Part shown: piece by piece, positions 1,205 through 61,589 of the stretch | Numbering within the stretch: position 1 is the stretch's first letter | Layout of the letters: every line of letters starts with the position of its first letter | Assembly: GCA_001794215.1 (NCBI GenBank) | Contig: MGJK01000012.1 | Span: 4,834-68,833 of the forward strand | Direction of reading: 5' to 3' | DNA length: 64,000 bases | DNA from: Candidatus Yanofskybacteria bacterium RIFCSPHIGHO2_01_FULL_44_24 | Lineage (GTDB): Bacteria; Patescibacteriota; Minisyncoccia; 2-02-FULL-40-12; GWA2-44-9 | The notes under the pieces: generated by a model | What the model was told of the DNA's origin: nothing | The model's database searches: none | The model's input: only the letters and a program-made list of their open reading frames with translations | Made by a program: the position numbers and the translations under genes

Positions 1205-2359
1205 ATGGCCGAAAAATCAATCACGATCTTCACTACCGCCTACAAGCCTTTTATAGGCGGATCCGAAATAGCAATTGAACAAATCAGCCGACGATTGCCG
1301 GATATTTTTTTCAATATCATAACTCCAAAACTTCGCGGTGATCTTAAGTGGGAGGAGGCCACAGGAAACGTGAAAATAAACAGGGTCGGGATTGGATGGC
1401 GACCGTTAGATAAGATGCTTTTTCCCGTTTTGGGGTTTCTACGGGCCGGCGGTTCGCCGTCTGTAGTTCATTCTTATCAGGCGTCATATGGAGGCGGAGC
1501 CGGGTGGGTTTTTAAAGTTTTCCATCCCAAATCTTTTTTTATTTTAACCCTGCAGGAGGGCAAGGATTTTGAAAAGCAGGGGTTTTTTATAAATTTTTTC
1601 AGAAATTTAATTATTAAAAAGGCCGACGCTATAACGGCGATCAGCAATTACTTGGCCGATTACGCCCGCAAGATAAATCCAAAGGCCAAGATCGCGGTCA
1701 TTCCCAATGGAGTGGACCTTGAAAAATTTAAAATTCAAAATGAAAAATTTAAAATTGAAGAACTCAAAAATAGACTAAAAATAGAAGACGGTGATAAGAT
1801 TGTCATTACCATTTCGAGGCTGGTGGAGAAAAATGGAGTGGGAGATCTGATAGAAGCGATCAGTAAGTGCAAAATCGCTAACCCAGAGCAAAGAATTAAG
1901 TTGATGATCATCGGGTCAGGATCGCTTGAGGAAAATTTAAAGATCAAAGTTCAAAAATCAAAATTACAAGACAGCGTTCTTTTCCTGGGGGATATTCCTT
2001 ACGATGAAATTCCTGCCTACTTAGCTATATCAGATGTTTTTGTGAGGCCCTCGTTTTCTGAGGGCTTAGGGAATGCATTTCTTGAGGCGATGGCGATGGG
2101 TGTTCCGATAATCGGTACGCCGGTCGGCGGTATACCCGATTTCCTTCAGGACGGAATTACAGGTCTTGCCTGTAAGGTCAGAAATCCGGACGATATAGCT
2201 AAGAAAATAAGCAGAATCTTGGCGGATGAAGGCCTGAGAAGATTGCTTGGAGAAAACGGAAGAAAACTTGTTCATGAAAGATACGATTGGGACTTCATTG
2301 CTCAAAAGTTTGGAGCAACATACAACCCTTTAATTCAAAATGAAAATATCAAAATGTAA
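1205..2359 (+). CDS. glycosyltransferase family 4
   Basis: N-term ITIFTTAYKPFIGGSE and C-term EGLGNAFLEAMAMGVPIIGTPVGGIPDFLQDGITG (E-x7-E motif). Contains an in-frame AT-rich tandem repeat coding EKFKIQNEKFKIEELKN. Confidence 0.85.
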   Translation: MAEKSITIFTTAYKPFIGGSEIAIEQISRRLPDIFFNIITPKLRGDLKWEEATGNVKINRVGIGWRPLDKMLFPVLGFLRAGGSPSVVHSYQASYGGGAGWVFKVFHPKSFFILTLQEGKDFEKQGFFINFFRNLIIKKADAITAISNYLADYARKINPKAKIAVIPNGVDLEKFKIQNEKFKIEELKNRLKIEDGDKIVITISRLVEKNGVGDLIEAISKCKIANPEQRIKLMIIGSGSLEENLKIKVQKSKLQDSVLFLGDIPYDEIPAYLAISDVFVRPSFSEGLGNAFLEAMAMGVPIIGTPVGGIPDFLQDGITGLACKVRNPDDIAKKISRILADEGLRRLLGENGRKLVHERYDWDFIAQKFGATYNPLIQNENIKM

Positions 2360-2438
2360 AATTCAGGTTACTCAACACTTCATTAGAAAAGTTTTGAGTT
2401 TCAATAATTTTTAACTTTGATTTTTAAATTTTAAATTT

Positions 2439-9468: not shown

Positions 9469-9602
9469 AAATTCAAAAATAAAAATGCAAAATTATCGAA
9501 GCTCATTTAGCAACAAAATGAGCAATCCAAATTTTAAACTTTTTAATCAATTTTCAATGATAATAATTCTAAAATTTAAAATTCTAAATTAAAAATTTTG
9601 TA
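9469..9602 (+). repeat. AT-rich intergenic element with central hairpin (family copy D)
   Basis: gaaaattcaaaaataaaaatgcaaaattatcg + hairpin gctcattt agcaacaa aatgagc + T-rich arm ...aattttaaactttttaat... ending at the ATG of the next gene. Same architecture as the copies at 37157 and 38225. Confidence 0.6.
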
Positions 9603-19035: not shown

Positions 19036-19049
19036 CTGAATACAATTAC

Positions 19050-19177
19050 TCTAATTTCTAATTGATCTAATTATTCTAATCAATTCCCAATTTTTTAAAT
19101 GTCTAAATCCTAAGGTTTTCGTTATTACGATTTATTTAGGTCAATTAGGTTAATTAGTATAATTAGGTTAATTTTTT
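19050..19177 (+). repeat. short direct repeats in intergenic leader (ctaatt x5; aattaggttaatt x2)
   Basis: ctaatttctaattgatctaattattctaatcaatt and tcaattaggttaattagtataattaggttaatt directly upstream of the 19182 ATG. Confidence 0.5.
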
Positions 19178-19181
19178 ACCC

Positions 19182-34034: not shown

Positions 34035-34059
34035 AACAGGATTTGTCTGAAAGCGATAA

Positions 34060-34410
34060 ACAGAAGTAATGAGGGCGCGGCATAAAGTCACTCCGCCTTG
34101 GCTTATTCGAGGCACGCCAATAAATTCCGCTCGCCCCTTATCTATCTTCAGCACGCCTCCGTCCCGCCAGCGACGGGACTCAGCTATGTTCGCCCCGCCC
34201 CTTCAGAACCATGCAAGGGGCGGGGTCTCAAATGCTTCAGATAGACAAGGGGCTTCGCCTTAGTTTTTCGTAAATCCCTTCAATAGGTTAAAGCCTCGCT
34301 TAAGGTTTTAAATAGAAGCCTGCGCAAATCTCCCAATATGCCGGCCGGGGCTTCGCTTAAAGTTGGTTTTGTAAATTCCTTATAGGGTTAACTAATCTAC
34401 CCTCGGTAGC
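34060..34410. other. GC-rich, hairpin-dense intergenic region (possible structured RNA / foreign leader) upstream of intact C-methyltransferase
   Basis: Unusually G+C-rich for this genome. Strong hairpins gccccgcccctt-cagaaccatgc-aaggggcggggt (34192-34227) and gtcccg-ccagcga-cgggac (34161-34179). ggggcttcgc repeats twice. No protein-like ORF; the 64-aa ORF 34069..34263 is low-complexity. Confidence 0.4.
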
Positions 34411-34475
34411 TATCGTTGATTTAATTAATTATTTCCTGTAACATCACAATGAATAAATCGGGAGGAGCTTAAACC

Positions 34476-35738
34476 ATGAAAATACCCAATCATGATGCGC
34501 CAATCGGCAGGATGGACCGATGTCAGATATGCGGCTCGGCCAACCTTTTTGAGGGTATAGATTTAGGCCATCAACCTCCCTGCGATGCTCTTTTAACAAA
34601 TAAAACGATCAACGAGCCGGAGATTTATTATCCTTTGCGCCTAATGATATGTTCCGACTGTGGACTCGGTCAGCTTGACCATGTCGTGGACGGGAAAATC
34701 ATTTATCCCGCCGACTATCCTTATAGGGCCGGAATTTCAAAGCCTTTACGGGATTATCTGCTGACTTATGCCGATGATGTGGTTACGCGGTTGAATGTTC
34801 CGCAGAAGGCCCTATGCGTTGATATAGGCTGTAATGACGGGACATTGCTCACCGGATTTCGGTCCCATGGCATGCGTACGCTTGGCGTTGAGCCGACAGA
34901 TATGGCCAAATACGCCCGGAAAGAAAACAAAATCACAACTTTGCAGGAGTTTTTCACTGAAGGCGTTGCCCGACAAGCAGTTAAAGAATACGGGAAAGCT
35001 AAGGTGGCAACAATGACCAATGTTTTTGCTCATATGGCTCCGTTGGGTAAAGTGATGCGCGGTATCGACAGACTACTGGATAAAGACGGAATGTTTGTTA
35101 CCGAGAGCCAGTATCTTCTTGATGTCTTGGATCGCAATCAGTTCGACCAGGTTTATCATGAGCATATCAGGTTATATAGCCTGAAGTCGCTGACCAAGCT
35201 GTTCCCGTATTATGGAATGGAAGTTTTCGATGCCGAGAAGCTCTCTTCCCGCGAAGGAAGCATCCGTGTTTATGTGGCGCGTAAAGGTGTGCGTCCGGTC
35301 AGTTCGAGGGTGGGCAACCTGCTTGCTCTTGAAGAAAGTCGGGGGCTGTTTGTGCCAGCGGTCTGGGCTCAGTTCCGGGCTCGGGTTAGTGAATGTCGTG
35401 AAAGATTTCTCGATTTAGCCTATAAGGCCAAGAACCAGGGGTTGAGATTTGTTGCCGATTCTTGTCCCGGACGCGGTGCGGTCTTGGTTAATTATTACGG
35501 TTTAGATAAAACCCTGATGCCATACATAGCTCAGCTTCCGGAGTCAGAAAAGGTTGGAAGGTATCTTCCCGGCACCCATATTCCTATCGTGGCTAACGGC
35601 ATTATTCTAAAAGAGAAGCCGGACTATGTGGTCATTCTCGCATGGCATTACGCCGATTTCATCATGAAGAATTGGCGAGCCAAGGGCCTGAAGTCGAAGT
35701 TTGTTATTCCGCTTCCGGATCCGAGGGTTATAAGTTAA
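34476..35738 (+). CDS. NDP-sugar C-methyltransferase (Zn-ribbon + class I MTase + C-methyltransferase C-terminal domain), intact
   Basis: CQICGSAN...CSDCGLGQL zinc ribbon, VDIGCNDGTLL motif I and the C-terminal domain (GRGAVLVNYYG...DYVVILAWHYADFIM). Good SD gggagg 9 nt upstream. Visibly higher G+C than its neighbours. Confidence 0.8.
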   Translation: MKIPNHDAPIGRMDRCQICGSANLFEGIDLGHQPPCDALLTNKTINEPEIYYPLRLMICSDCGLGQLDHVVDGKIIYPADYPYRAGISKPLRDYLLTYADDVVTRLNVPQKALCVDIGCNDGTLLTGFRSHGMRTLGVEPTDMAKYARKENKITTLQEFFTEGVARQAVKEYGKAKVATMTNVFAHMAPLGKVMRGIDRLLDKDGMFVTESQYLLDVLDRNQFDQVYHEHIRLYSLKSLTKLFPYYGMEVFDAEKLSSREGSIRVYVARKGVRPVSSRVGNLLALEESRGLFVPAVWAQFRARVSECRERFLDLAYKAKNQGLRFVADSCPGRGAVLVNYYGLDKTLMPYIAQLPESEKVGRYLPGTHIPIVANGIILKEKPDYVVILAWHYADFIMKNWRAKGLKSKFVIPLPDPRVIS

Positions 35739-35753
35739 TTAAAGTGTCCCCCA

Positions 35754-35785
35754 AGAGCAGACTGATTAGTCTGCTCTTTGATTTG
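35754..35785 (+). terminator. rho-independent terminator candidate
   Basis: agagcagact gatt agtctgctct is a perfect 10-bp stem followed by ttgatttg. Confidence 0.6.
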
Positions 35786-36003
35786 TCGGGTAGTGAATGT
35801 TTGAGATGCAATTTTCTAAAGAAAATTGCCACGGCAAAGCCACTCAAACATCTACTACCTGACGATTTGAAAAAGCATGTATTTAGGGTATATTAACCAT
35901 AGGATCAAATCCGAATAGCGAAACAAGAAATTCGAAACAAACAATAAGCCCGAAGCTTTTAGAGGGTGGCCGGTGGGCGTGCGGGGTATTCAAATGTTTG
36001 GAG

Positions 36004-36038
36004 TTTCGATCTTCGATATTGTTTCGTATTTCGAAATT
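36004..36038 (+). promoter_or_regulatory. conserved T-rich half of palindromic leader motif (TTCGAYATTGTTTCG-KW-TTTCGAWATT), ~20 nt upstream of start codon
   Basis: tttcgatcttcgatattgtttcgtatttcgaaatt. Near-identical copies lie at 46924 and 54547, each ~20 nt from a start codon and each paired with an upstream A-rich complement (cgaaacaa). Confidence 0.55.
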
Positions 36039-36058
36039 CTAATTTCTAATTTAAGTAG

Positions 36059-37156
36059 ATGATACCCTTTTTGGATCTAAAAAGTTTGAATGCTCCAATG
36101 AAGAAAGAACTCATGAAGGCTATTGAGAATGTTTTTGATTCCGGCTGGTATATCTTGGGCAGACAGTTAATCTTATTCGAAAAAGAATTTGCCAAGTACT
36201 GTGGAACCAGATATGCGGTAGGGGTGGGCAACGGACTCGATGCGCTCATTCTGATTTTTCGTGCCTACAAAGAAATGGGAATCATGAGAGAGGGCGATGA
36301 GGTCATCGTTCCGGCCAATACCTACATTGCCAGCATACTTGCCGTTACTGAAAACAGGCTCAAGCCGGTTTTAGTTGAGCCTGATCTGGCGACGTACAAC
36401 ATCGATCCGGATCTGATTGAGGAGAAGATCACCGATAAGACAAGAGCGATCATGGTGGTGCACCTGTATGGACGGGTCGGATATTCGGATAAAATTCGAA
36501 AAATTGCTGATAAATATAATCTAAAAGTAATTGAAGACGGAGCTCAGTCTCACGGCGCCGAGTACAAGGGGAGAAAATCTGGAAATTTGGGAGATGCCGC
36601 CGGACACAGCCTGTACCCTTCAAAACCCTTTGGTGCCTTAGGTGATGCGGGGGTTGTGACCACTAACGATCCTAAGTTGGCGGAGGTGGTCAGCGCTATA
36701 AGAAATTACGGGAGCTATAAAAAATACTACAACCGTTACAAGGGCGTTAATAGCCGTTTAGATGAACTGCAAGCCGCGGTTCTTTCGGTTAAGTTAAAAT
36801 ATTTAGACAAAGATAATGACGAGCGCAGGAAAATAGCCGACCTTTATCTGGAGAGTATTAAAAATAAAAAGATTGCCCTACCTCAAGTTAAAGATAAGAA
36901 ATCCCATGTCTGGCATCTTTTCGCTATCAGAGCAAAAGACAGAGAGCAATTTGCCGAGCATATGCTGAAGAAGGGGATCGAAACCCTCATTCATTACCCG
37001 GTCCCGCCCCACAAACAGGAGGCATTTAAAGAATGGAAGAGTCAAAAGTATCCGATAACCGAAGAGATACATGATACGGTTATCAGCTTGCCCCTTTATG
37101 GAACGATGACTAAAAGGCAGATAGAACAGGTGATTGAGGCGTGCAACGCATTCTAA
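36059..37156 (+). CDS. DegT/DnrJ/EryC1/StrS-family PLP-dependent sugar aminotransferase
   Basis: Full-length with the conserved active-site Lys present ([15 protein letters not shown]). GVGNGLDAL and [11 protein letters not shown] motifs. Confidence 0.8.
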
Positions 37157-37270
37157 TTCTAATGAAAAATTCAAAAATCAAAGTGTAAAATTATTGTAAC
37201 CCGTAAAACCCCTTGATTTTTACGGGTATCCTGAATTTTTAATTTTGATATTTACATTTTAAATTTTGGT
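37157..37270 (+). repeat. AT-rich intergenic hairpin element (family copy A)
   Basis: ctaatgaaaaattcaaaaatcaaagtgtaaaattattgtaa + hairpin acccgtaaaa-cccctt-ga-ttttacgggt + T-rich arm gaatttttaattttgatatttacattttaaatttt, ending at an ATG. Confidence 0.7.
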
Positions 37271-38224: not shown

Positions 38225-38338
38225 CCTAATGAAAAATTTAAAAATCAAAATGTAAAATTATTGTAACTCGCGAAATTAACCGACTTTTGCGAGTATCCTT
38301 AATTTTTAACTTTGATCTTTACATTTTAAACTTTTTAG
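38225..38338 (+). repeat. AT-rich intergenic hairpin element (family copy B) inserted inside a GT4 gene
   Basis: cctaatgaaaaatttaaaaatcaaaatgtaaaattattgtaa + hairpin actcgcgaaa...ttttgcgagt + T-rich arm. Collinear with copy A. The hairpin has compensatory substitutions (cccgtaaaa/ttttacggg versus ctcgcgaaa/ttttgcgag). Confidence 0.7.
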
Positions 38339-44125: not shown

Positions 44126-44504
44126 GTTTCCAAAAATTGTCAATAAACCGTGGGGCAGGGAGGTCTGGTTAGAGTTAAATAAAAATTATTGCTACAAAAG
44201 GATTTACATCAACAGAGGCTTTAGAACCAGTTTTCAGTTTCACCGGAAGAAGATGGAAACCAACTATATCATCAAGGGTAGGGCTGAAATTTGGCTTGAA
44301 AACGATCGCGGCGTTGTTTTGAAAAAAAATATGAAAAGCGACGATTTTTTTACAGTTAAACCGCCCCGAAAGCACAGAGTGGCTGCAATAACCAATCTGG
44401 TTCTTCAGGAGGTTTCTACCCCTGAAGTCGACGATGTTGTCAGAATCAACGATGATACCAATAGGCCCGATGGTAAAATTAAAAGCGAGCACAAAAATAA
44501 ATGA
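44115..44504 (+). CDS. cupin-domain protein (mannose-6-P-isomerase-like small cupin)
   Basis: KPWGREVWLE...FQFH..K.E...I.KG is the cupin motif pair. Confidence 0.6.
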   Translation: MKYKFPKIVNKPWGREVWLELNKNYCYKRIYINRGFRTSFQFHRKKMETNYIIKGRAEIWLENDRGVVLKKNMKSDDFFTVKPPRKHRVAAITNLVLQEVSTPEVDDVVRINDDTNRPDGKIKSEHKNK

Positions 44505-44788
44505 ATCCCGTTAGAGCCAAAATGTACTACCATGTCTATGTATTACAAAGCACAAAGGATAGGCACTGGTATACAGGCTTTACGGTGGATTTACGGAAGC
44601 GCTTGAAAGAACACAATGAAGGAAAGTATGAGTCGTGGACAAAAGGCAGAGGACCATTTGAATTAATATATTATGAAGCGTCTAAAAACAAACAAGATGC
44701 TAAAAATAGAGAAAAATATCTTAAAACTGGCATGGGCAAGCGCTACCTCAAAAACAGGCTTAAGCGCTTCCTGGCTCTAACGGGATGA
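44501..44788 (+). CDS. GIY-YIG nuclease-domain protein (YhbQ/UPF0213-like)
   Basis: YYHVYVLQS...WYTGFTVDLRKRLKEHNEG is the GIY-YIG core in a ~95-aa protein. Overlaps both neighbours by 4 nt (ATGA). Confidence 0.65.
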   Translation: MNPVRAKMYYHVYVLQSTKDRHWYTGFTVDLRKRLKEHNEGKYESWTKGRGPFELIYYEASKNKQDAKNREKYLKTGMGKRYLKNRLKRFLALTG

Positions 44789-46497
44789 ATCCAAATCTTT
44801 CTAAAATCTGCGTACGGCCGGATGACAGCATCAAGGCGGTGCTGGATAAATTAGTTTTGCATAAGCCAGCCCAAACCAAGCTTCCCGGGGGGATTGTCTT
44901 GATTACCGAAAAGGATGGTAAGTTAGTCGGTATTGCTACTGATGGCGACATTCGAAGAGGACTTGCTGGAGGAGCAAAAATGGAAGATCGGATTTCCGCT
45001 CTGATGAACGGTAAGCCCTTTGTCGTTCAGGGTCCGACAACGAGCGAAGCGATACTCTCATTGGCTTCGGAGAAAATAAGAAAAGAAGGGCTCCATCGCG
45101 ACCGCTTAAGCAAAATTATCATCGTCGATAAAGATAAAAAGGTTTTAGATTTAGTCTCTTTTTATGATTTATGGAGGAAAAGCGATGTAAGGTTCAGGCA
45201 GATCGGAGTTGTCGGTTTGGGATATGTGGGCTTGACGCTCGGTGTTACCTTGGCCGATTTAGGGTTCAAGGTCATTGGTTTTGATATTGCTCCCGCGGTT
45301 AGGAAATCTTTGCAGAGAGGCAAGCCTCACTTCTACGAAAACGGCCTGGAAAGAATGCTTAAAGACAACTTAAGCAAGAATTTAAGGATTGCAAGTAATT
45401 TCAAAGGAGCCAATAATTGCGATGTATATTTTGTTTCTGTCGGCACTCCCTTAGACGGTAATAAAAAACCGAACCTCAAATATTTGCGTAATGCCTCAGA
45501 AAGGATCGGGAAGGTGCTGAAGGAGGGAGATTGCGTGATTTTACGCTCGACTGTTCCGGTCGGCGCGACCAGAAATTTTGTAGTGCCGATTTTAGAGAAA
45601 CTTTCCGGACTTAAGGCCGGTGACGGGTTTTTCGTCTCATTTGCCCCTGAAAGAACCATAGAGGGCAAGGCTCTTGAGGAATTGAGAAACCTTCCTCAGG
45701 TAGTTGGAGGAATTAATCGCGTAAGCGCCGATTTGACGGCGACCCTTTTCGGCCATATGACCCATTCGACGGTCTTGGTGGACTCTCTGGAAGAGGCAGA
45801 GACGGTTAAGCTTATCAACAATACTTATCGAGATGTTACCTTCTCCTTTGCCAACGAACTGTCCCTGATTTGCCATCGTTTGGGCATCGATACTCACCGG
45901 GTGATCGAGGCTGCTAATCGTGGATATGCAAGAAGCAATGTCCCTTTGCCTGGGCCAGGAGTCGGAGGAGCGTGCCTTGAAAAGGATCCATTTATTTTTA
46001 TCGAAAGCGCCAAAACCAAAGACTACGATCCGTTGCTGGTAAGGCACGCCCGATCGGTAAGCGACTTGATGCTCGATTTTATTACCCGGGAGATCAAAAG
46101 GTTCTTGGCCGGAAAACCAAATCTGCGCAACCCCAAGGTATTTATGATGGGCTTTGCGTTCAAGGGTCAGCCTGTTACCTCCGATATCAGGGGTTCGTAT
46201 TCGGTTAAGCTCGCAGATCAACTGAAGAAGAATATTCCGAATATCCATGTTTATGATCCTGCGGTTAGGCGGGAAGATATTCTGAATCATGGGCTCAGGT
46301 ATGCCGGCGACCTTAAAACAGGATTTACCGGAGCGGACGTGGTCGTGGTTATGAATAACAATCCGGCGTTTGGAGAAATAGACATAAGAAGCGCTCTCCA
46401 GTTGACTAATAAGCCGGCATTTCTATTTGATACTTGGGGAATATATAATAGAGAAGACGTGGCCAAAGTCAAAGGAGTGGAGTATAAGAGGTTGTAA
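44785..46497 (+). CDS. CBS-pair domain fused to UDP-glucose/GDP-mannose-dehydrogenase-family nucleotide-sugar dehydrogenase
   Basis: N-terminal ~150 aa with CBS-like repeats (LVGIATDGDIRRGL). Then the NAD-binding IGVVGLGYVGLTLGVTLADLGFKVIGFD and the UDPG/MGDP dehydrogenase central and C-terminal regions. Confidence 0.7.
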   Translation: MNPNLSKICVRPDDSIKAVLDKLVLHKPAQTKLPGGIVLITEKDGKLVGIATDGDIRRGLAGGAKMEDRISALMNGKPFVVQGPTTSEAILSLASEKIRKEGLHRDRLSKIIIVDKDKKVLDLVSFYDLWRKSDVRFRQIGVVGLGYVGLTLGVTLADLGFKVIGFDIAPAVRKSLQRGKPHFYENGLERMLKDNLSKNLRIASNFKGANNCDVYFVSVGTPLDGNKKPNLKYLRNASERIGKVLKEGDCVILRSTVPVGATRNFVVPILEKLSGLKAGDGFFVSFAPERTIEGKALEELRNLPQVVGGINRVSADLTATLFGHMTHSTVLVDSLEEAETVKLINNTYRDVTFSFANELSLICHRLGIDTHRVIEAANRGYARSNVPLPGPGVGGACLEKDPFIFIESAKTKDYDPLLVRHARSVSDLMLDFITREIKRFLAGKPNLRNPKVFMMGFAFKGQPVTSDIRGSYSVKLADQLKKNIPNIHVYDPAVRREDILNHGLRYAGDLKTGFTGADVVVVMNNNPAFGEIDIRSALQLTNKPAFLFDTWGIYNREDVAKVKGVEYKRL

Positions 46498-46557
46498 AAA
46501 AACTCGAATAACGAAATTCGAAACTCGAAACAAAACCAGAAAATTAGAAATAAAATC

Positions 46558-46908
46558 ATGAACGAAGCTAAAAAACCTTATGATTTGGAAGAGCGGTCTT
46601 TACTGTTTGCTAAACGAGTTAACGGTTATGTGCGTAAATTGCCGAAGGATACTCCTAATTTTGAAAACGGAAAGCAATTGGTCCGTTCTGGTGGTTCAAT
46701 CGGAGCTAATTATATCGAAGCTAACGAGGCTATGAGTAAGAAAGATTTTAGAATGAGAATCAAGATATCTAAGAAAGAGGCCAAGGAAACTGTCTTCTGG
46801 TTAAAGTTGACTCAACCGACTTCAGAACAAATAAACGAAAAAGACGATTTAGTAAAAGAAGCTGGCGAGTTGATGAATATTTTAGGCGCTATCTTGGTTA
46901 AATCTTAG
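46558..46908 (+). CDS. four-helix-bundle protein (23S rRNA IVS protein / Avd-like family)
   Basis: YDLEERSLLFAKRV...SIGANYIEANEAMSKKDF...KEAKETVFWLKL. Paralog of 8485. Flanked by the inverted A-rich/T-rich arms at 46498-46540 and 46924-46958. Confidence 0.75.
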   Translation: MNEAKKPYDLEERSLLFAKRVNGYVRKLPKDTPNFENGKQLVRSGGSIGANYIEANEAMSKKDFRMRIKISKKEAKETVFWLKLTQPTSEQINEKDDLVKEAGELMNILGAILVKS

Positions 46909-46923
46909 TTTAGGAATTTATAA

Positions 46924-46958
46924 TTTCGATATTCGACATTGTTTCGGATTTCGATATT
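46924..46958 (+). promoter_or_regulatory. conserved T-rich palindromic leader motif copy
   Basis: tttcgatattcgacattgtttcggatttcgatatt, 21 nt upstream of the TTG start at 46980. Its complement-like A-rich arm aaactcgaataacgaaattcgaaactcgaaacaa lies at 46498-46535 on the other side of the four-helix-bundle gene. Confidence 0.55.
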
Positions 46959-46979
46959 AGGATTTCGAATTTACATAAA

Positions 46980-47702
46980 TTGTATAAACAGTATAAAGTA
47001 TTGGGTCTTATTCTTGCTCGCGGAGGTTCCAAGTCTATTCCTAAGAAAAATATTAAACTGCTTGGAGGCAAGCCTTTGCTTGCCCATACGGTTGAAAAAG
47101 CCAAAGCCGCCAAGTACATTGACCGGCTCATCCTTTCCACTGACGATAAAGAGATTGCCGATGTCGGCAGAAAATACGGAGCCGAAGTTCCTTTTACGCG
47201 ACCGGCAGAATTAGCCGAAGACAGCACGACCGACTATCCGGTTTTCGTTCATGCGGTTGAGTGGCTTGAAAAGAACGAGAATTGGAAGCCCGATTTTGTC
47301 GTTCACTTACGGCCGACTCATCCTTTTCGTAAAACTTCAGATATCGATAAAGCCGTAGAAATGCTCGCCGGTAATCCGGAAGCCGATTCTGTTTGGACCG
47401 TTGGGCTGCCTCCGGTGACGCCGTACAAGATGTTTTTGGCCGAAGAAGGCCAATTTATTAAACCAGTCGTTACTATCCCCGGAGTAGATGAGGCGTATAA
47501 TCTTCCTCGTCAGAAACTTCCCAAAGCCTACAACCACTATGGCCAAGTTGATGTTATGAGGCACAATACGTTGATGAAAAAGAAATCAATGTGTGGGAAA
47601 AATATCTTACCTCTTTTCCTTGAAGGAGAATTAGTTGATTTAGATACTCTATTCGATTGGGAGTTCGCGGAGTTTCTAATGAAAAAAGGGAAGATCAGAT
47701 AA
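46980..47702 (+). CDS. CMP-nonulosonic acid synthetase (acylneuraminate cytidylyltransferase NeuA/PseF/LegF family)
   Basis: LGLILARGGSKSIPKKNIKLLGGKPLLAHTVEKA...RLILSTDD is the classical N-terminal CMP-NeuAc/CMP-Kdo synthetase motif. TTG start. Short form without an esterase domain. Confidence 0.75.
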   Translation: MYKQYKVLGLILARGGSKSIPKKNIKLLGGKPLLAHTVEKAKAAKYIDRLILSTDDKEIADVGRKYGAEVPFTRPAELAEDSTTDYPVFVHAVEWLEKNENWKPDFVVHLRPTHPFRKTSDIDKAVEMLAGNPEADSVWTVGLPPVTPYKMFLAEEGQFIKPVVTIPGVDEAYNLPRQKLPKAYNHYGQVDVMRHNTLMKKKSMCGKNILPLFLEGELVDLDTLFDWEFAEFLMKKGKIR

Positions 47703-47784
47703 TTTTTTACTTTTTAATTTTCAATTTTATAATCAATTTTTAAAATTAAAAATTCTAAAATTAAAAATTTAACTTCTTTATAGC

Positions 47785-53221: not shown

Positions 53222-53320
53222 AATTTTTAATTTAGAATTTTTAATTTTCAAAATTGGCCGTTAAAAACCGATTATAAAATTCCTGCCTGCCGGTAGGCAG
53301 GTTAAAGTAAAAAGTAAAAA

Positions 53321-54475
53321 TTGATATCAAGCATGAATGGTTTTAATATTAAAACCCCTTATAGTAGTAGGAGGATAGGCGATAACGCCCCTACTTTTGT
53401 TATAGCCGAAATAGGTAAGAATTTTATCCAGACCAAAAAGGAGAAATCGGTTAAAGAATATCTGAGGAACGCCAAAGAACTGGTAATTTTAGCCAAAAAA
53501 TCCGGAGCTGATGCGGTTAAATTCCAAACCCATAATGTCGAGGATGAACAGCTCAATTTAAAAATAAGAGCCCCGCACTTTAAGGGCGATAGGTACGAAT
53601 GGGTTTCGAGGAATACCAAGGCTACACCGGTTAAAGAGTTTTGGATTCCGCTCAAAGAATTCTGCGATAAGGAAGGAATCACATTTTTCTCTACGCCCTG
53701 CAGTTTAGGAGCCGCAAAGATATTGTCCTCCCTGGATGTGGCTCTGTGGAAAGTCGCCTCTTGGGATATTTTGGATTTTGTTATGCTCGACCATATCAGA
53801 AAAAGCGGCAAACCGGTTATTATTTCCGGCGGAGCCAGTACGGCCGAAGAGATAGACAGATCAATCTCTTATATCCAGGAGAAAAACAAAAATCTTGCCT
53901 TGCTTCATTGTGTTTCCAAGTATCCCTGTCCACCCGAAGAGTTGAATTTGGGTACGATCGGTTTTTTTAAGAAAAGATACGATGTCCCCATAGGTTTTTC
54001 CGATCATTCTTTAGGCATCGAGTCTACCCTGGCCGCCGTTGCCCTGGGAGCTAAGGTGATAGAAAAACATTTCTCCCTGTCCCGAAGCTTATGGGGGGCC
54101 GATCATAGATTTTCCATGACTTCGGCATCGTTTGGTAAAATGGTTACAGAGATAAGGAAAATAGAGGCTAATCCCGGTGCGGCTCAGAAATATTTAAATC
54201 ATGAGAAAGTAAAGCCGAGCCTGAATTTTTCCGGCAAGGTTATCAGAGACGAAGAGAAAAGCATGAAGGCCGTATTTGCCAAGGCTCTTTTTGCCGGACG
54301 GGATATTCCGGCCGGACAAGTTATAAAATCTGATATGTTATACTCAATGAGACCCGGATTGGCGGTCGGAGGACTTCAGCCACTCCACTTCCATATGGTA
54401 GTCGGTCAAAAATCAGCAAAAGATTTGAAGAAGTTCGAACCGATAACGTTAGAAGTTGTAAAATCCGAAATCTGA
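53321..54475 (+). CDS. N-acetylneuraminate-synthase family enzyme (NeuB/PseI/LegI-like) with C-terminal SAF domain
   Basis: FVIAEIGKN...GADAVKFQTH...IGFSDHSLG is the NeuB TIM-barrel region. C-terminal antifreeze-like domain (ARDIPAGQVIKSDMLYSMRPGLAVGG). Confidence 0.8.
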   Translation: MISSMNGFNIKTPYSSRRIGDNAPTFVIAEIGKNFIQTKKEKSVKEYLRNAKELVILAKKSGADAVKFQTHNVEDEQLNLKIRAPHFKGDRYEWVSRNTKATPVKEFWIPLKEFCDKEGITFFSTPCSLGAAKILSSLDVALWKVASWDILDFVMLDHIRKSGKPVIISGGASTAEEIDRSISYIQEKNKNLALLHCVSKYPCPPEELNLGTIGFFKKRYDVPIGFSDHSLGIESTLAAVALGAKVIEKHFSLSRSLWGADHRFSMTSASFGKMVTEIRKIEANPGAAQKYLNHEKVKPSLNFSGKVIRDEEKSMKAVFAKALFAGRDIPAGQVIKSDMLYSMRPGLAVGGLQPLHFHMVVGQKSAKDLKKFEPITLEVVKSEI

Positions 54476-54546
54476 AATCCGAAATTCTAAACAAAGCCCG
54501 AAAATCAGAAATCCTAAATCTGAGATGGTTTGATAGTTTTCTTTAG

Positions 54547-54595
54547 TTTCAATATTCGATATTGTTTCGTTTTTCAACATTCGATATTCGAATTT
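54547..54595 (+). promoter_or_regulatory. conserved T-rich palindromic leader motif copy
   Basis: tttcaatattcgatattgtttcgtttttcaacattcgatattcgaattt, ~14 nt upstream of the ATG at 54609. The A-rich counterpart (aaatccgaaatctgaaatccgaaattctaaacaaagcccgaaaatcagaaatcc, 54458-54520) overlaps the upstream gene's stop. Confidence 0.55.
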
Positions 54596-54608
54596 AAATT
54601 TCTTAGGC

Positions 54609-55922
54609 ATGAAGATCCTCATAAGTATCCCAAGTCCCGAATATTACAGGAACTATATTACTTCGCCGGCGCTTTCGGAAATAATCGAAAGCTGTTATTT
54701 TATTGTGCCCAAGAAAATGGCGGATAAGGATTTCGGAGTGCCTAAATCGAGGGTTGCGGTCTATGATTATCCTGCCGACAAAGAAGTTCTGCACAAACAT
54801 TTATTTCATATCAATACAGGAAAGTTTGAATCTCGAAGCACTTCCCTGAAGTTCAGATTTATGAGACTAAGCAAAAGGAGCCAGGTTCTCTATCGTATTC
54901 TTGGATTGCCGGTTATTTATGAACTGACGCGATTTTTCATCCTCTCCCGAGCGGACGATAGACGGTTATTCTCTGTAATTAAAAGCATTCAGCCGGATGT
55001 AATTTTAATGCCTTCAAGCGGGTACGAGGGGATTACTTTTGAAATTATAAAGACAGCCAAGAAGCAGGGGGTACCGACTTTGATGCTGGTAGATAACTGG
55101 GATAATTTAGTGAGCAAGACCATTTTTACCTATAAGCCTGATTTTCTTTCGGTCTGGGGACCGCAGGCGGTTAAAGATGCCGTTGAAATTCATGGAATAC
55201 CCAAAGAAAGGATCTTTCCGATCGGAACGCCGAGGTTTTTCAATTATTTCAAGAACAGATCAGAGTATCCGTCACCTTACCCCTTTAAGTATGCACTTTT
55301 TGCCGGAAATTCAACGGGTTTTGATGAGCTGTCTGCGCTTAAAAAACTCGAAGAATATATCGAGAAAAATAATTTAGATCTCAAGATCGTTTATCGGCCC
55401 CACCCAATGAGGCAGAAAAGGAAATGTCCGGATAATTTTGTTGAGAGCGAATTCAAACATGTTGTACTGGATCTCCAGGCCAAGGAATATTATAACCGGG
55501 AAAAATCCAAAACCCCTTCTGATCTTCCTGATCTGGATTATTATCCCCGGGCCTTGGCTAATATGGAGTTTATGATCTGTCCGTTATCAACCATGTTGAT
55601 TGAGTGTCTTCTTTTTGATAAGCCAGTTTTTGTTTTGGCTTATGATGACGGGATACATTTCGTAAATCCTAAGAACTTGTATAAATATTGCCGACACTTT
55701 GAGGGGATCGAATATCTTAGAAATCTCGAAATCATTCACGAGTTCGAAGATCTAACCAGGGTGTTTACGGTTGATTTTTCCAAGAAAAGAATGGAGAAAG
55801 AAATTCCTTTGAGTTATTATCTTTCAGAAAAAACACGGCACTATCCGCACCATGTGAAATTACTGGTTGAGGATATCAATGCAAAATTCAAAAATAACCT
55901 GCGGGTCGGCCCGCAGGAATGA
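54609..55922 (+). CDS. putative GT-B glycosyltransferase with HP motif (sialyltransferase / KpsC-KpsS Kdo-transferase-like)
   Basis: 437 aa. Rossmann-like N-domain (VILMPSSGYEGITFEIIKTAKKQGVPTLMLVDNWDN) and a C-domain with YRPHP (His-Pro motif as in CMP-sugar-dependent sialyl/Kdo transferases). Confidence 0.4.
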   Translation: MKILISIPSPEYYRNYITSPALSEIIESCYFIVPKKMADKDFGVPKSRVAVYDYPADKEVLHKHLFHINTGKFESRSTSLKFRFMRLSKRSQVLYRILGLPVIYELTRFFILSRADDRRLFSVIKSIQPDVILMPSSGYEGITFEIIKTAKKQGVPTLMLVDNWDNLVSKTIFTYKPDFLSVWGPQAVKDAVEIHGIPKERIFPIGTPRFFNYFKNRSEYPSPYPFKYALFAGNSTGFDELSALKKLEEYIEKNNLDLKIVYRPHPMRQKRKCPDNFVESEFKHVVLDLQAKEYYNREKSKTPSDLPDLDYYPRALANMEFMICPLSTMLIECLLFDKPVFVLAYDDGIHFVNPKNLYKYCRHFEGIEYLRNLEIIHEFEDLTRVFTVDFSKKRMEKEIPLSYYLSEKTRHYPHHVKLLVEDINAKFKNNLRVGPQE

Positions 55923-56009
55923 AAAATTATCGTAACCCGCAAAACATAGTTAGCTTTGCGAGTGTCATTAATTTTTAACTTTCATCTCTACGCTTTAATT
56001 TTCCGTACT
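55923..56009 (+). repeat. AT-rich intergenic hairpin element (family copy C, lacking left arm)
   Basis: gaaaaattatcgtaa + hairpin cccgcaaaa-catagttagc-tttgcgag + aatttttaactttcatctctacgctttaatttt, ending at ATG 56010. Confidence 0.55.
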
Positions 56010-60586: not shown

Positions 60587-60591
60587 ATATC

Positions 60592-60609
60592 CACGGCCTA
60601 ACGGCCGTG
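60592..60609 (+). terminator. hairpin (terminator-like) at start of GC-rich intergenic region
   Basis: cacggcc taa cggccgtg is a perfect 7-bp stem, 6 nt after the stop. No U-tract. Confidence 0.4.
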
Positions 60610-60881
60610 ATACCCCATGTCTTCGATTTATTCTCGGGATTTGCTTTGGAAAAGAAATTCGGGGTCTATATAATTGCTTCCTCCGCCAACTGGGCGGATC
60701 CGGGTCTGACTTCATCCTCGTGCTAACGCCCGAGGTTTTCGTCGGATCAATTATAAAAAGATGAACCTATGGCGCCCCATAGGGAGCGTACTTCATATTT
60801 TTTTACCATCTATGGCGTCCTATGTCAATATAGCCATAAGCTTAAATATATTGTACATTAGTTTAGTTAATTTAACTCACG

Positions 60882-61589
60882 ATGCCATATAGATCTCAAA
60901 AGATCTTAGTGATTATTCCGGCGCGGGGAGGATCAAAAAGGTTACCCGGTAAGAATATAAAGAAGATCGGCGGAAAGCCGATGATTGCCCATGCGATCGA
61001 AGCGGCCAGGAAATCAAAATATGTCGACAGGGTAGTCGTTTCGACTGATGATAAGGCAATAGCCAGTATTGCGAAAAAATATAAAGCCGAAGTGCCATTT
61101 GTGCGTCCGGCCGAACTTGCCTCTGATACGGCGCCAACCCTCCCTGTTTTACAGCACGTTGTTAAATATGTTGAGGAAAATGATAAATTCAAGCCGGATT
61201 TAGTTGTTCTGATTCAGCCGACAAATCCGCTTGTCAGATCTGAAGATGTGGACGGAACTATAGAAACTTTATTCAAAACCAACACTAATTCCTGCTTTTC
61301 TGTTACTGAAATAAGTCAGAGGCCGGAATGGATGTATAGGATGGATAATAATCCCGCAGAACTTTTTCTAAAAGAAGAATCTGGCCCGACGAAAAGATCA
61401 CAGGAACTTCCCCGACTGGCTATCATAAATGGCACGGTTTATGTAATGAAATACGAAACTCTTATGACAAAAAATAAAATACGGGATGGCAATACGAGTA
61501 TTTATGTGATGCCCCGGGAAAGATCGGTGGATATTGATGATAAGTTTGATTTCGAGTTGGCAAAGTTTTTGTTCCAGAGAAATAAATGA
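60882..61589 (+). CDS. CMP-nonulosonic acid synthetase (NeuA/PseF/LegF family), second copy
   Basis: ILVIIPARGGSKRLPGKNIKKIGGKPMIAHAIEAA...RVVVSTDD. Paralog of 46980. Confidence 0.8.
   Translation: MPYRSQKILVIIPARGGSKRLPGKNIKKIGGKPMIAHAIEAARKSKYVDRVVVSTDDKAIASIAKKYKAEVPFVRPAELASDTAPTLPVLQHVVKYVEENDKFKPDLVVLIQPTNPLVRSEDVDGTIETLFKTNTNSCFSVTEISQRPEWMYRMDNNPAELFLKEESGPTKRSQELPRLAIINGTVYVMKYETLMTKNKIRDGNTSIYVMPRERSVDIDDKFDFELAKFLFQRNK

Follow-up and report, generated by a model that had tools for sequence, protein, structure and literature searches.

Introduction

The closest described relative of the element studied here is the intervening sequence (IVS) in the 23S rRNA of Coxiella burnetii, which consists of a 28-bp terminal inverted-repeat stem and a sense-oriented open reading frame (ORF) for S23p, a four-helix-bundle (4HB) protein (Warrier et al. 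2016, PMC4990558). Directly before the ATG of this ORF come tandem heptamers, GACAGAT and then GACAGAA, which number two to three depending on the strain, and RNase III cuts have been mapped within the stem, at the first heptamer (PMC4990558). ORFs for 4HB proteins also occur in rRNA insertions of candidate phyla radiation (CPR) bacteria (bioRxiv 10.1101/2024.02.27.582315), and the Avd accessory proteins of diversity-generating retroelements belong to the same 4HB pentamer superfamily (PMC10053308). Here we examined a 64,000-nt stretch of contig MGJK01000012.1 from the CPR genome of Candidatus Yanofskybacteria bacterium RIFCSPHIGHO2_01_FULL_44_24, called the window below, in which an earlier note had described pairs of A-rich and T-rich palindromic arms before three start codons, one pair bracketing a 4HB gene. 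In our reading, these three sites, at 36, 46.5 and 54 kb, belong to a small selfish IVS-type 4HB cassette, present in one intact copy and in two that lack the gene, and its arms would be processed by RNase III; an overall probability of roughly 70% blends a higher value for the cassettes themselves with a lower one for the processing.

The window cassette resembles the ORF-bearing 23S IVSs (helix-45 of Coxiella burnetii; S23p of Leptospira and Brucella) in its homologous PF05635 ORF, in terminal inverted repeats that close a stem-loop, and in having a sense ORF with a poor or absent Shine-Dalgarno sequence and evident horizontal transfer. With the Coxiella IVS it also shares tandem heptamers immediately before the ATG. 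Whereas those IVSs lie in rRNA helices, the window elements and the loci compared with them lie between protein-coding genes; the heptamer unit is GAAATNC in the window cassette and GACAGAT in Coxiella; and the window 4HB ORF is under strong purifying selection, while that of Coxiella is decaying. RNase III cuts are mapped for the Coxiella IVS, and excision of the window cassettes is a prediction from their like anatomy. The two gene-less copies in the window (WIN36 and WIN54), together with the gene-less copies that we found in four other genomes (loci L002, L004, L052 and L064), are comparable to the ORF-less rRNA IVSs of Salmonella, Yersinia and Campylobacter, since the former are ORF-less hairpins of 140-180 nt and the latter RNase III-cut hairpins of ~100-150 nt, and both coexist with ORF-bearing relatives. 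Unlike the ORF-less IVSs, these gene-less copies lie outside rRNA, and the comparison is one of descriptions (PMC4990558).

The window 4HB gene differs from avd in that it has no adjacent reverse transcriptase, its neighbours being a UDP-glucose (UDPG) dehydrogenase-like gene and a CTP_transf_3 cytidylyltransferase gene; the template and variable repeats (TR/VR) of such retroelements were not looked for. Short inverted-repeat elements that resemble miniature inverted-repeat transposable elements (MITEs), occupy spacers within operons, are co-transcribed and form long hairpins include the Correia elements of Neisseria and the enterobacterial repetitive intergenic consensus (ERIC) and intergenic repeat unit (IRU) sequences. 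The hairpins of Correia elements are cut by RNase III and affect how stable the neighbouring mRNA is; the elements carry TA target duplications and have no coding parent. The cassettes described here differ from such repeats in that no target-site duplication was found and the parent codes for a 4HB protein, not a transposase. Tandem 7-nt arrays are also known from cyanobacterial spacers as short tandemly repeated repetitive (STRR) sequences, which the tandem heptamers at the 4HB genes of Nostoc plasmids (below) resemble; to our knowledge, STRRs have been reported as repeats of a general kind, and no description has them bracket one particular gene family in inverted orientation.

Results

Six arms form three inverted pairs

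For the arm search we used an nhmmer profile of 76 arms flanking 4HB genes of other genomes, from which the window sequence was excluded. This foreign profile returned exactly six matches in the 64-kb window, with E-values from 6e-6 to 6e-3, and no other match with E<1. The + strand holds those at 35900-35941, 46493-46534 and 54456-54495, and the - strand those at 36019-36059, 46939-46978 and 54562-54599; together they form the three inverted pairs 35900-36059, 46493-46978 and 54456-54599. The A-rich and T-rich sequences quoted in the earlier note were located where it had placed them. The parts of the three elements, all given on the + strand, are as follows.

35900-35941, +: left (A-rich) arm of WIN36, heptamer units ending CGAAACAA; nhmmer E 1.4e-4
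35942-36018, +: interior of WIN36, without an ORF, made up of a local GC-rich hairpin and then a right-proximal segment (tttcgatcttcgata); from sequence and fold, aligns to the cassette ends minus the ORF
36019-36059, +: T-rich right arm of WIN36, which at its outer end adjoins the DegT ATG (first base 36059); nhmmer match on the - strand, E 1.1e-4; duplex z -3.2
46493-46534, +: left arm of the intact cassette, overlapping the TAA stop of the UDP-glucose dehydrogenase-like gene (46495-46497); nhmmer E 9.4e-5
46535-46557, +: A-rich spacer from the AAACAA core to the ATG, without a Shine-Dalgarno sequence; kept in the closest homologue, L089
46558-46908, +: 4HB protein gene, 116 aa, 23S_rRNA_IVP / TIGR02436; Pfam, TIGR02436 and PDB 2rld matches
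46909-46938, +: right-proximal segment from the stop codon to the TTGTTT core; family-wide layout
46939-46978, +: right (T-rich) arm of the intact cassette; nhmmer match on the - strand, E 6.9e-6; duplex z -3.1
54456-54495, +: left arm of WIN54, holding the NeuB TGA stop (54473-54475); nhmmer E 6.2e-6
54496-54561, +: interior of WIN54, no ORF, left part like the pre-ATG spacer of the cassette and right part like its post-stop segment; from alignment to the cassette
54562-54599, +: right arm of WIN54, whose end is 9 nt short of the ATG at 54609; nhmmer match on the - strand, E 6.1e-3; duplex z -2.7

Each arm is an array of ~7-nt units, GAAATNC, with the terminal unit GAAACAA. The left end of the cassette is thus (GAAATNC)n-GAAACAA, to which the right end is complementary; all six arms can be aligned on GAAAT.CGAAACAA. 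Identity at a lag of 7 nt is 0.44-0.68 in the six arms vs 0.26 in controls. The + strand of the window has three copies of the core TTCGAYATTGTTTCG, and TTGTTTCG/CGAAACAA (the motif and its complement) has 8 matches vs 3.07 expected, six of which fall within the three sites.

That the arms of each site can pair, as had been proposed, was borne out. Duplex energies for the 36-, 46.5- and 54-kb pairs are -26.8, -28.1 and -22.4 kcal/mol, each lower than expected from 500 dinucleotide shuffles (the z-scores listed above), and the minimum free energy fold of the whole 46.5-kb cassette transcript has 33 long-range arm pairs that seal the ORF.

The intact cassette and its 4HB gene

The arms at 46.5 kb do flank an entire 4HB gene, as the earlier note had it. 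Its product matches PF05635 (E 5.1e-14, 52.8 bits, cut-off 33.8), TIGR02436 (E 2.3e-19, 69.6 bits, cut-off 24) and PDB entry 2rld (E 5e-14), a structure with 5 chains, and 33 invariant columns are common to it and 27 homologues. The protein is identical to one of Candidatus Yanofskybacteria bacterium RIFCSPHIGHO2_02_FULL_44. It was found on 24 contigs with always the same neighbours, which hence gave no polymorphism information.

The closest non-identical homologue, L089 (79% amino acid identity), has different host genes on either side. Between the window 4HB gene and that of L089, pN is 0.11 and pS 0.84, synonymous sites being saturated, and dN/dS for the 4HB genes of L089 and L090 is 0.09. 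The arms of L089 and the window nevertheless retain ~85% identity in aligned columns despite the saturated synonymous sites. Both the ORF and the arms are therefore under purifying selection, which for the ORF is strong. No promoter-like site of the cassette's own was found in a scan for sigma-70-type sites only, and no PADLOC family of anti-phage defence proteins matched at E <= 0.01.

Gene-less copies are shortened cassettes

WIN36 and WIN54 can each be aligned with the two ends of the 46.5-kb cassette, the gene being absent in between (z about 8-10). For WIN54 against 46480-46990, identity in aligned columns is 81% and the score 124.7 vs a shuffle mean of 57.7 (sd 6.4); for WIN36 the values are ~80% and 106.4 vs 55.5 (sd ~6.5). 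Gene-less paired arms also lie less than 1.5 kb from a full cassette in L002, L004, L052 and L064, and fold into the 140-180-nt hairpins mentioned above. The gene-less copy of L052 is 91% identical to the adjacent full cassette in two blocks, -53..+25 around the ATG and from the stop to +73; it equals that cassette minus nt 26-373 of the ORF, and retains the ATG and the first 25 nt of the ORF. In the 5/5 informative gene-less copies the A-rich arm comes first relative to host transcription.

One suggestion had been that a leader stem-loop acquired the 4HB gene as cargo. Because the L052 copy keeps the ATG and the window copies align to both cassette ends, the direction is the opposite one: the gene-less copies arose by internal deletion, with cargo lost and not gained.

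In L002, L004 and L052 the full cassette (~1450-1930) and the gene-less copy (~2370-2970) occupy consecutive spacers with one host gene between them. This arrangement in three genomes may point to copying over a short distance, from one spacer to the next.

These comparisons also bear on whether the sites merely resemble each other by chance, as low-complexity AT-rich spacers shaped by replication slippage and without a common origin. The arms are indeed A/T-rich and repetitive, and the folding energies of the whole regions are unexceptional (below). Against this, a profile derived from foreign arms matches nothing but the six arms in 64 kb, the alignments to the cassette ends lie far outside shuffles, the duplex z-score is about -3 for each copy, and the arms have been kept between genomes whose synonymous sites are saturated, which argues that they are not a chance low-complexity resemblance. 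We consider this explanation refuted by the profile matches, the cassette-end alignments and the arm conservation.

The same bracket occurs at 4HB genes of many phyla

A scan of species-representative genomes yielded 80 loci with 4HB homologues of 53-72% identity, of which 68 were usable. They come from Saccharibacteria, other Patescibacteria, Planctomycetota, Desulfobacterota, Omnitrophota, Gammaproteobacteria, Bacteroidota and others. We scored the bracket by Smith-Waterman (SW) local alignment of the 100 nt upstream of each ORF with the reverse complement of the 100 nt downstream. Duplex folding of these 100-nt flanks was uninformative, as GC-richer distal controls scored equally, and sequence-based inverted-repeat scoring was used instead. 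The mean score over the 68 loci was 36.2 vs 16.2 for shuffles, and 52/68 loci beat all 50 of their shuffles; distal control segments (600-700 nt away) had a mean of 14.2 and a maximum of 22.

The layout of the family is (AAATNCG)x3-5, AAACAAA, ~6 nt, ATG ... stop, ~30 nt, TTTGTTTCGGATTTCGATATTCGAATTTCGGATTT. A 7-nt period is present family-wide in both arms (lag-7 identity 0.46-0.51 vs 0.26 in controls), each arm carrying about 2-5 in-phase units. The unit type (CGAAAT, CTAAAT or CCAAAT) varies among loci and is the same in both arms of a locus in 34/52 cases (chi-square p 2e-5). Arms and ORF are inherited together, since the nearest protein neighbour shares the unit type in 28/42 cases vs 14.9 expected. 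When folded, well-preserved cassettes of these relatives have 45-64 long-range base pairs. Moreover, the first ~30 nt of the ORF pair with the post-stop segment in about half of the loci (33/71, vs 3/71 for a mid-ORF control), so that the start codon often lies within the duplex.

In four loci (L009, L010, L063 and L075) the unit of the arms is CCCTAAA/TTTAGGG, the plant-type telomere repeat. This likeness is probably coincidental, and such arms could mislead repeat or contamination screens.

The association of heptamer arrays with 4HB genes extends further. At distant 4HB genes (35-42% identity) on annotated plasmids the arrays are kept while the unit sequences differ: Nostoc plasmid genes are flanked by (AATTCAA)4 and (TTGAATT)4, while in Chlorohelix there are ATGAAGG-type inverted arrays, and in Treponema CTCTCCG arrays that are partly in direct orientation. 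Multi-copy matches in Nostoc flagelliforme were considered as independent insertions and rejected, as they belong to a duplicated plasmid backbone. No relatives were found in viral contigs, phage records giving only two weak partial matches.

A blastn search with E. coli rrnB found rRNA flanks at 0/90 other fetched loci. The three window copies likewise all sit between protein-coding genes and not, like a classical IVS, in helix 9, 25 or 45 of a 23S (or 16S) rRNA gene. The proposal that this may be an IVS-like cassette in a protein-coding context is thus upheld by the same bracket at non-rRNA 4HB genes across phyla, and we regard it as very probable that the three sites are IVS-type 4HB cassettes and their remnants.

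Host genes, orientation and distance to start codons

The window has ~42% GC with genes mostly on the + strand, and the three sites lie within a sugar/polysaccharide cluster that includes the following genes.

34476-35738: C-methyltransferase gene
36059-37156: DegT gene
44785-46497: UDP-glucose-dehydrogenase-like gene
~46980-47702: cytidylyltransferase gene
53321-54475: NeuB gene

The elements fill their spacers entirely. The UDPG-dehydrogenase and NeuB stop codons fall inside left arms, and right arms stop 0-10 nt short of the next annotated start. The proximity of right arms to start codons is accounted for by this filling of short intergenic spacers. The T-rich halves had been described as standing at a fixed distance from the start codons; this did not hold, as the gaps at the three sites are 20, 21 and 13 nt, the cytidylyltransferase start is ambiguous (gene callers' choices are equivalent to 46962, 47001 or 47076), and the distance from the arms to the next gene varies widely in other genomes.

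Upstream host genes end within the left arm at two of the window sites (46495-46497 and 54473-54475) and in L052 (~2604-2645), so that the heptamer array supplies their last codons and stop. This suggests that the insertion replaced native gene ends.

In other genomes the 4HB gene is co-oriented with both neighbours at 36 loci and opposed to both at 3. It also occurs within annotated RND (resistance-nodulation-division), restriction-modification (R-M) and cas operons: the pairs of genes that enclose it include those for an RND adaptor and permease, for HsdS and HsdR, and for a helicase and a methylase, and in one case it lies upstream of cas1. An earlier study had a 4HB gene between cmr3 and cmr2 (PMC3936711).

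Locus L098, on a Monoglobus plasmid (NZ_OY725736.1, 80897-81202), holds a 4HB pseudogene that is missing from the annotation and is interrupted by an in-frame stop; it lies in a type I R-M operon, with hsdS on one side and hsdR on the other, and taattaggaatgag-type repeats flank it.

We considered whether the arms could instead be dedicated cis-regulatory leaders of the DegT, cytidylyltransferase and glycosyltransferase genes, acting on translation or mRNA processing, one of which captured a 4HB gene. Arms that end 0-21 nt before annotated starts, and the lack of a clear Shine-Dalgarno sequence at all three downstream genes, are what such leaders might show. Just before WIN36 there is also a promoter-like TTGAAA-16-TATATT (35867-35894), which would put WIN36 in the DegT 5' untranslated region, and a terminator-like hairpin at 35753-35778 fits the same arrangement; however, promoter-like sites are at chance level (1 found vs 1.5 expected) and terminator-like sites are at chance frequency. 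That hairpin is the sole site of its kind (GC-rich hairpin and T-run) nearby, lies upstream of WIN36, and none coincides with the arms. Rfam gave 0 gathering-level matches in the window, with chance-level matches only (E 3.6-9) in 46450-47000. The leader explanation is made very unlikely by the presence of the same arms beside unrelated genes in many phyla, at variable distance from the next gene, and by gene-less copies that derive from full cassettes and not vice versa. Translational or RNA-processing control, another idea of the earlier note, is for the same reason not supported as something specific to the DegT, NeuA-like and transferase genes, the arms elsewhere lying beside efflux pumps, type I R-M, cas and helicase/methylase genes. 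We take the sites to be IVS-type cassettes in operon spacers and not dedicated leaders of sugar genes.

What the arms may do

In the mechanism that we favour for these cassettes, the element would be transcribed in the sense direction with the host operon, and its arms would anneal in the transcript into a long imperfect duplex that seals the ORF or, in gene-less copies, into a hairpin of ~150 nt. RNase III would then cut the arm duplex, by analogy with the 23S rRNA IVSs, and this cleavage would free the 4HB message and uncouple the upstream and downstream cistrons. RNA processing at the arms, which had been raised before, is plausible on this analogy, and we give RNase III processing as their activity at the window sites slightly less than an even chance. 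The effect on neighbour genes, like the element's way of moving, we infer only.

Several results weigh against this interpretation as a whole. The whole-region folds of the 36-, 46.5- and 54-kb sites are no stabler than shuffles (z -1.04, -0.43 and +0.82), and the window copies are comparatively degenerate, with interrupted duplexes of -22 to -28 kcal/mol. In arm pairing, G.U is not in excess over A.C mismatches (75 vs 88, p 0.35; 63 vs 65 in a second test), so that the mismatches give no sign of selection on pairing in the sense RNA as such. Strict-register complementarity of cognate arms (0.569) is close to that of non-cognate arms (0.542), and the heptamer arrays at some distant 4HB genes (Treponema, Bernardetia) are direct and not inverted. 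As to mobility, a direct repeat of at least 4 nt at the inverted-repeat boundaries, which would be a target-site duplication, was present at 0/34 loci and at neither the L052 nor the L004 copies, and the element contains no transposase or other mobility gene. A search of metagenome contigs with the UDPG-dehydrogenase gene recovered no empty site, only one distant (27%) relative. Finally, the arms are conserved as a sequence family, which speaks against a purely RNA-level role.

Some of these observations would be expected if the arms acted at the DNA level only, as terminal inverted repeats of a MITE-like element mobilised in trans or copied by recombination, with the RNA hairpin incidental. 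MITE-type terminal inverted repeats are present, with conserved termini that mostly read AAATCC...GGATTT; arm mismatches show no wobble bias; derivatives that have lost the gene by internal deletion lie beside full copies; the family is spread over phyla with changing neighbours; and even non-cognate arms score 26.9 by SW vs 16.2 for shuffles, so that they form a sequence family and are not merely complementary. A MITE derives by internal deletion from a longer, transposase-coding parent; here internal deletion is seen, and the parent encodes a 4HB protein and no recognisable transposase. Unfavourable to this explanation are the lack of target-site duplications and of a transposase in or near the element; the sense bias of 36 vs 3 is unexpected for orientation-blind insertion unless selection acts later, and the homologous rRNA IVSs are processed as RNA (PMC4990558). 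On balance we find an exclusively DNA-level role somewhat unlikely.

The heptamer arrays may alternatively be binding sites, in RNA or DNA, for the cassette's own toroidal pentameric 4HB protein, serving autoregulation, protection or mobility, with arm complementarity secondary. The heptamer-4HB association does persist at 35-42% protein identity while the unit changes (AATTCAA in Nostoc, ATGAAGG-type in Chlorohelix, CTCTCCG in Treponema and GACAGAT in Coxiella), and it persists where the arrays are direct. Homologues are homopentameric (Lin et al. 2006, as cited in PMC4990558; compare the 5 chains of 2rld), and the number of in-phase units per arm, about 2-5, as well as the joint inheritance of arms and ORF, would suit such binding. 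However, co-inheritance alone accounts for the clade association, a coevolution scan of residues against unit type found no column that discriminates cleanly, and gene-less copies persist without the protein in cis. We therefore judge this explanation distinctly unlikely as the primary role of the arms. With no wobble bias, no target-site duplication and no transposase, the arms may also have a DNA-level role as element ends, or a role as binding arrays for the pentameric protein, besides the RNA processing that we prefer.

Other elements in the window

A separate family of ~110-nt spacer hairpins occurs at 37158-37269, 38226-38333, 55878-56003 and 2333-2432 (- strand). Each member leads from an A-rich arm (aaaattcaaaaatcaaa.tgtaaaatt) through a central GC hairpin to a T-rich arm, and the members match each other with E 1e-13 to 2e-4; presumably they are what the earlier note counted as a first palindromic family. 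The 4HB-arm profile does not match these 37-kb-type hairpins, they were not found in the other loci, and kinship between the two families was not established.

Four further spacers between co-directional genes (9469-9602, 19036-19181, 47703-47784 and 53222-53320) have an A-rich/T-rich palindromic layout with weak 7-nt periodicity, and much of the intergenic DNA of the sugar cluster looks like decayed hairpin elements. The small GC hairpin cctgcctgccggtaggcagg in the spacer at 53222-53320 closely resembles cctgtctgccggcaggcagg of another patescibacterial genome (L038, ~1400-1476), where it forms part of a left cassette arm at a 4HB gene; this hairpin may be a recurrent inserted module. A free-standing 95-aa GIY-YIG ORF at 44501-44788, overlapping its neighbours in the sugar cluster by a few bases, has a weak match to group I intron endonucleases (E 7.7e-6, below the cut-off) and PF01541 in precomputed annotation, and is possibly another selfish insertion. 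Two other spacers are rich in hairpins. One, of 441 nt (34035-34475), is GC-richer, has no ORF of at least 80 aa and no gathering-level Rfam match, and contains hairpins gccccgcccctt...aaggggcggggt and repeated 'ggggcttcgc.tta' motifs; the other, of 295 nt (60587-60881), has several GC-rich hairpins (ccacggcctaacggccgtg and others) and precedes the gene at 60882.

Discussion

The 4HB cassette described here is of the IVS type but sits outside rRNA, has derivatives that lack the gene and follows a pattern that extends across phyla; as such it appears undescribed in the searchable literature: a full-text search found no description of heptamer-bracketed 4HB cassettes, or of gene-less derivatives, in operon spacers. 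The finding calls for some caution in annotation, since 4HB genes within cas, R-M or biosynthetic operons may be mere insertions and not functional partners of the genes around them.

Since the early 1990s it has been an open question where bacterial rRNA IVSs and their conserved S23p/4HB protein come from and what they do. Sense-oriented cassettes in ordinary operons of CPR bacteria, Planctomycetota, Desulfobacterota, Omnitrophota, Bacteroidota and cyanobacteria, with selection on both ORF and arms and with gene-less derivatives, cast IVSs in a new light, as one of the niches that a general mobile cassette occupies. In a bolder form, which we advance as unlikely but worth stating, rRNA IVSs would be just the most familiar members of a much larger family of mobile 4HB cassettes that crosses phyla and colonises transcribed spacers in ordinary operons. 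The inverted heptamer arrays would be recognised by the element's own toroidal pentamer, and this protein would bring about the copying, mobility or RNA processing of the element in a way that requires no transposase and no target-site duplication. In either form, the cassettes in operon spacers offer many tractable cases for the study of RNase III processing, of the binding of the 4HB protein to the arms and of the mechanism of mobility.

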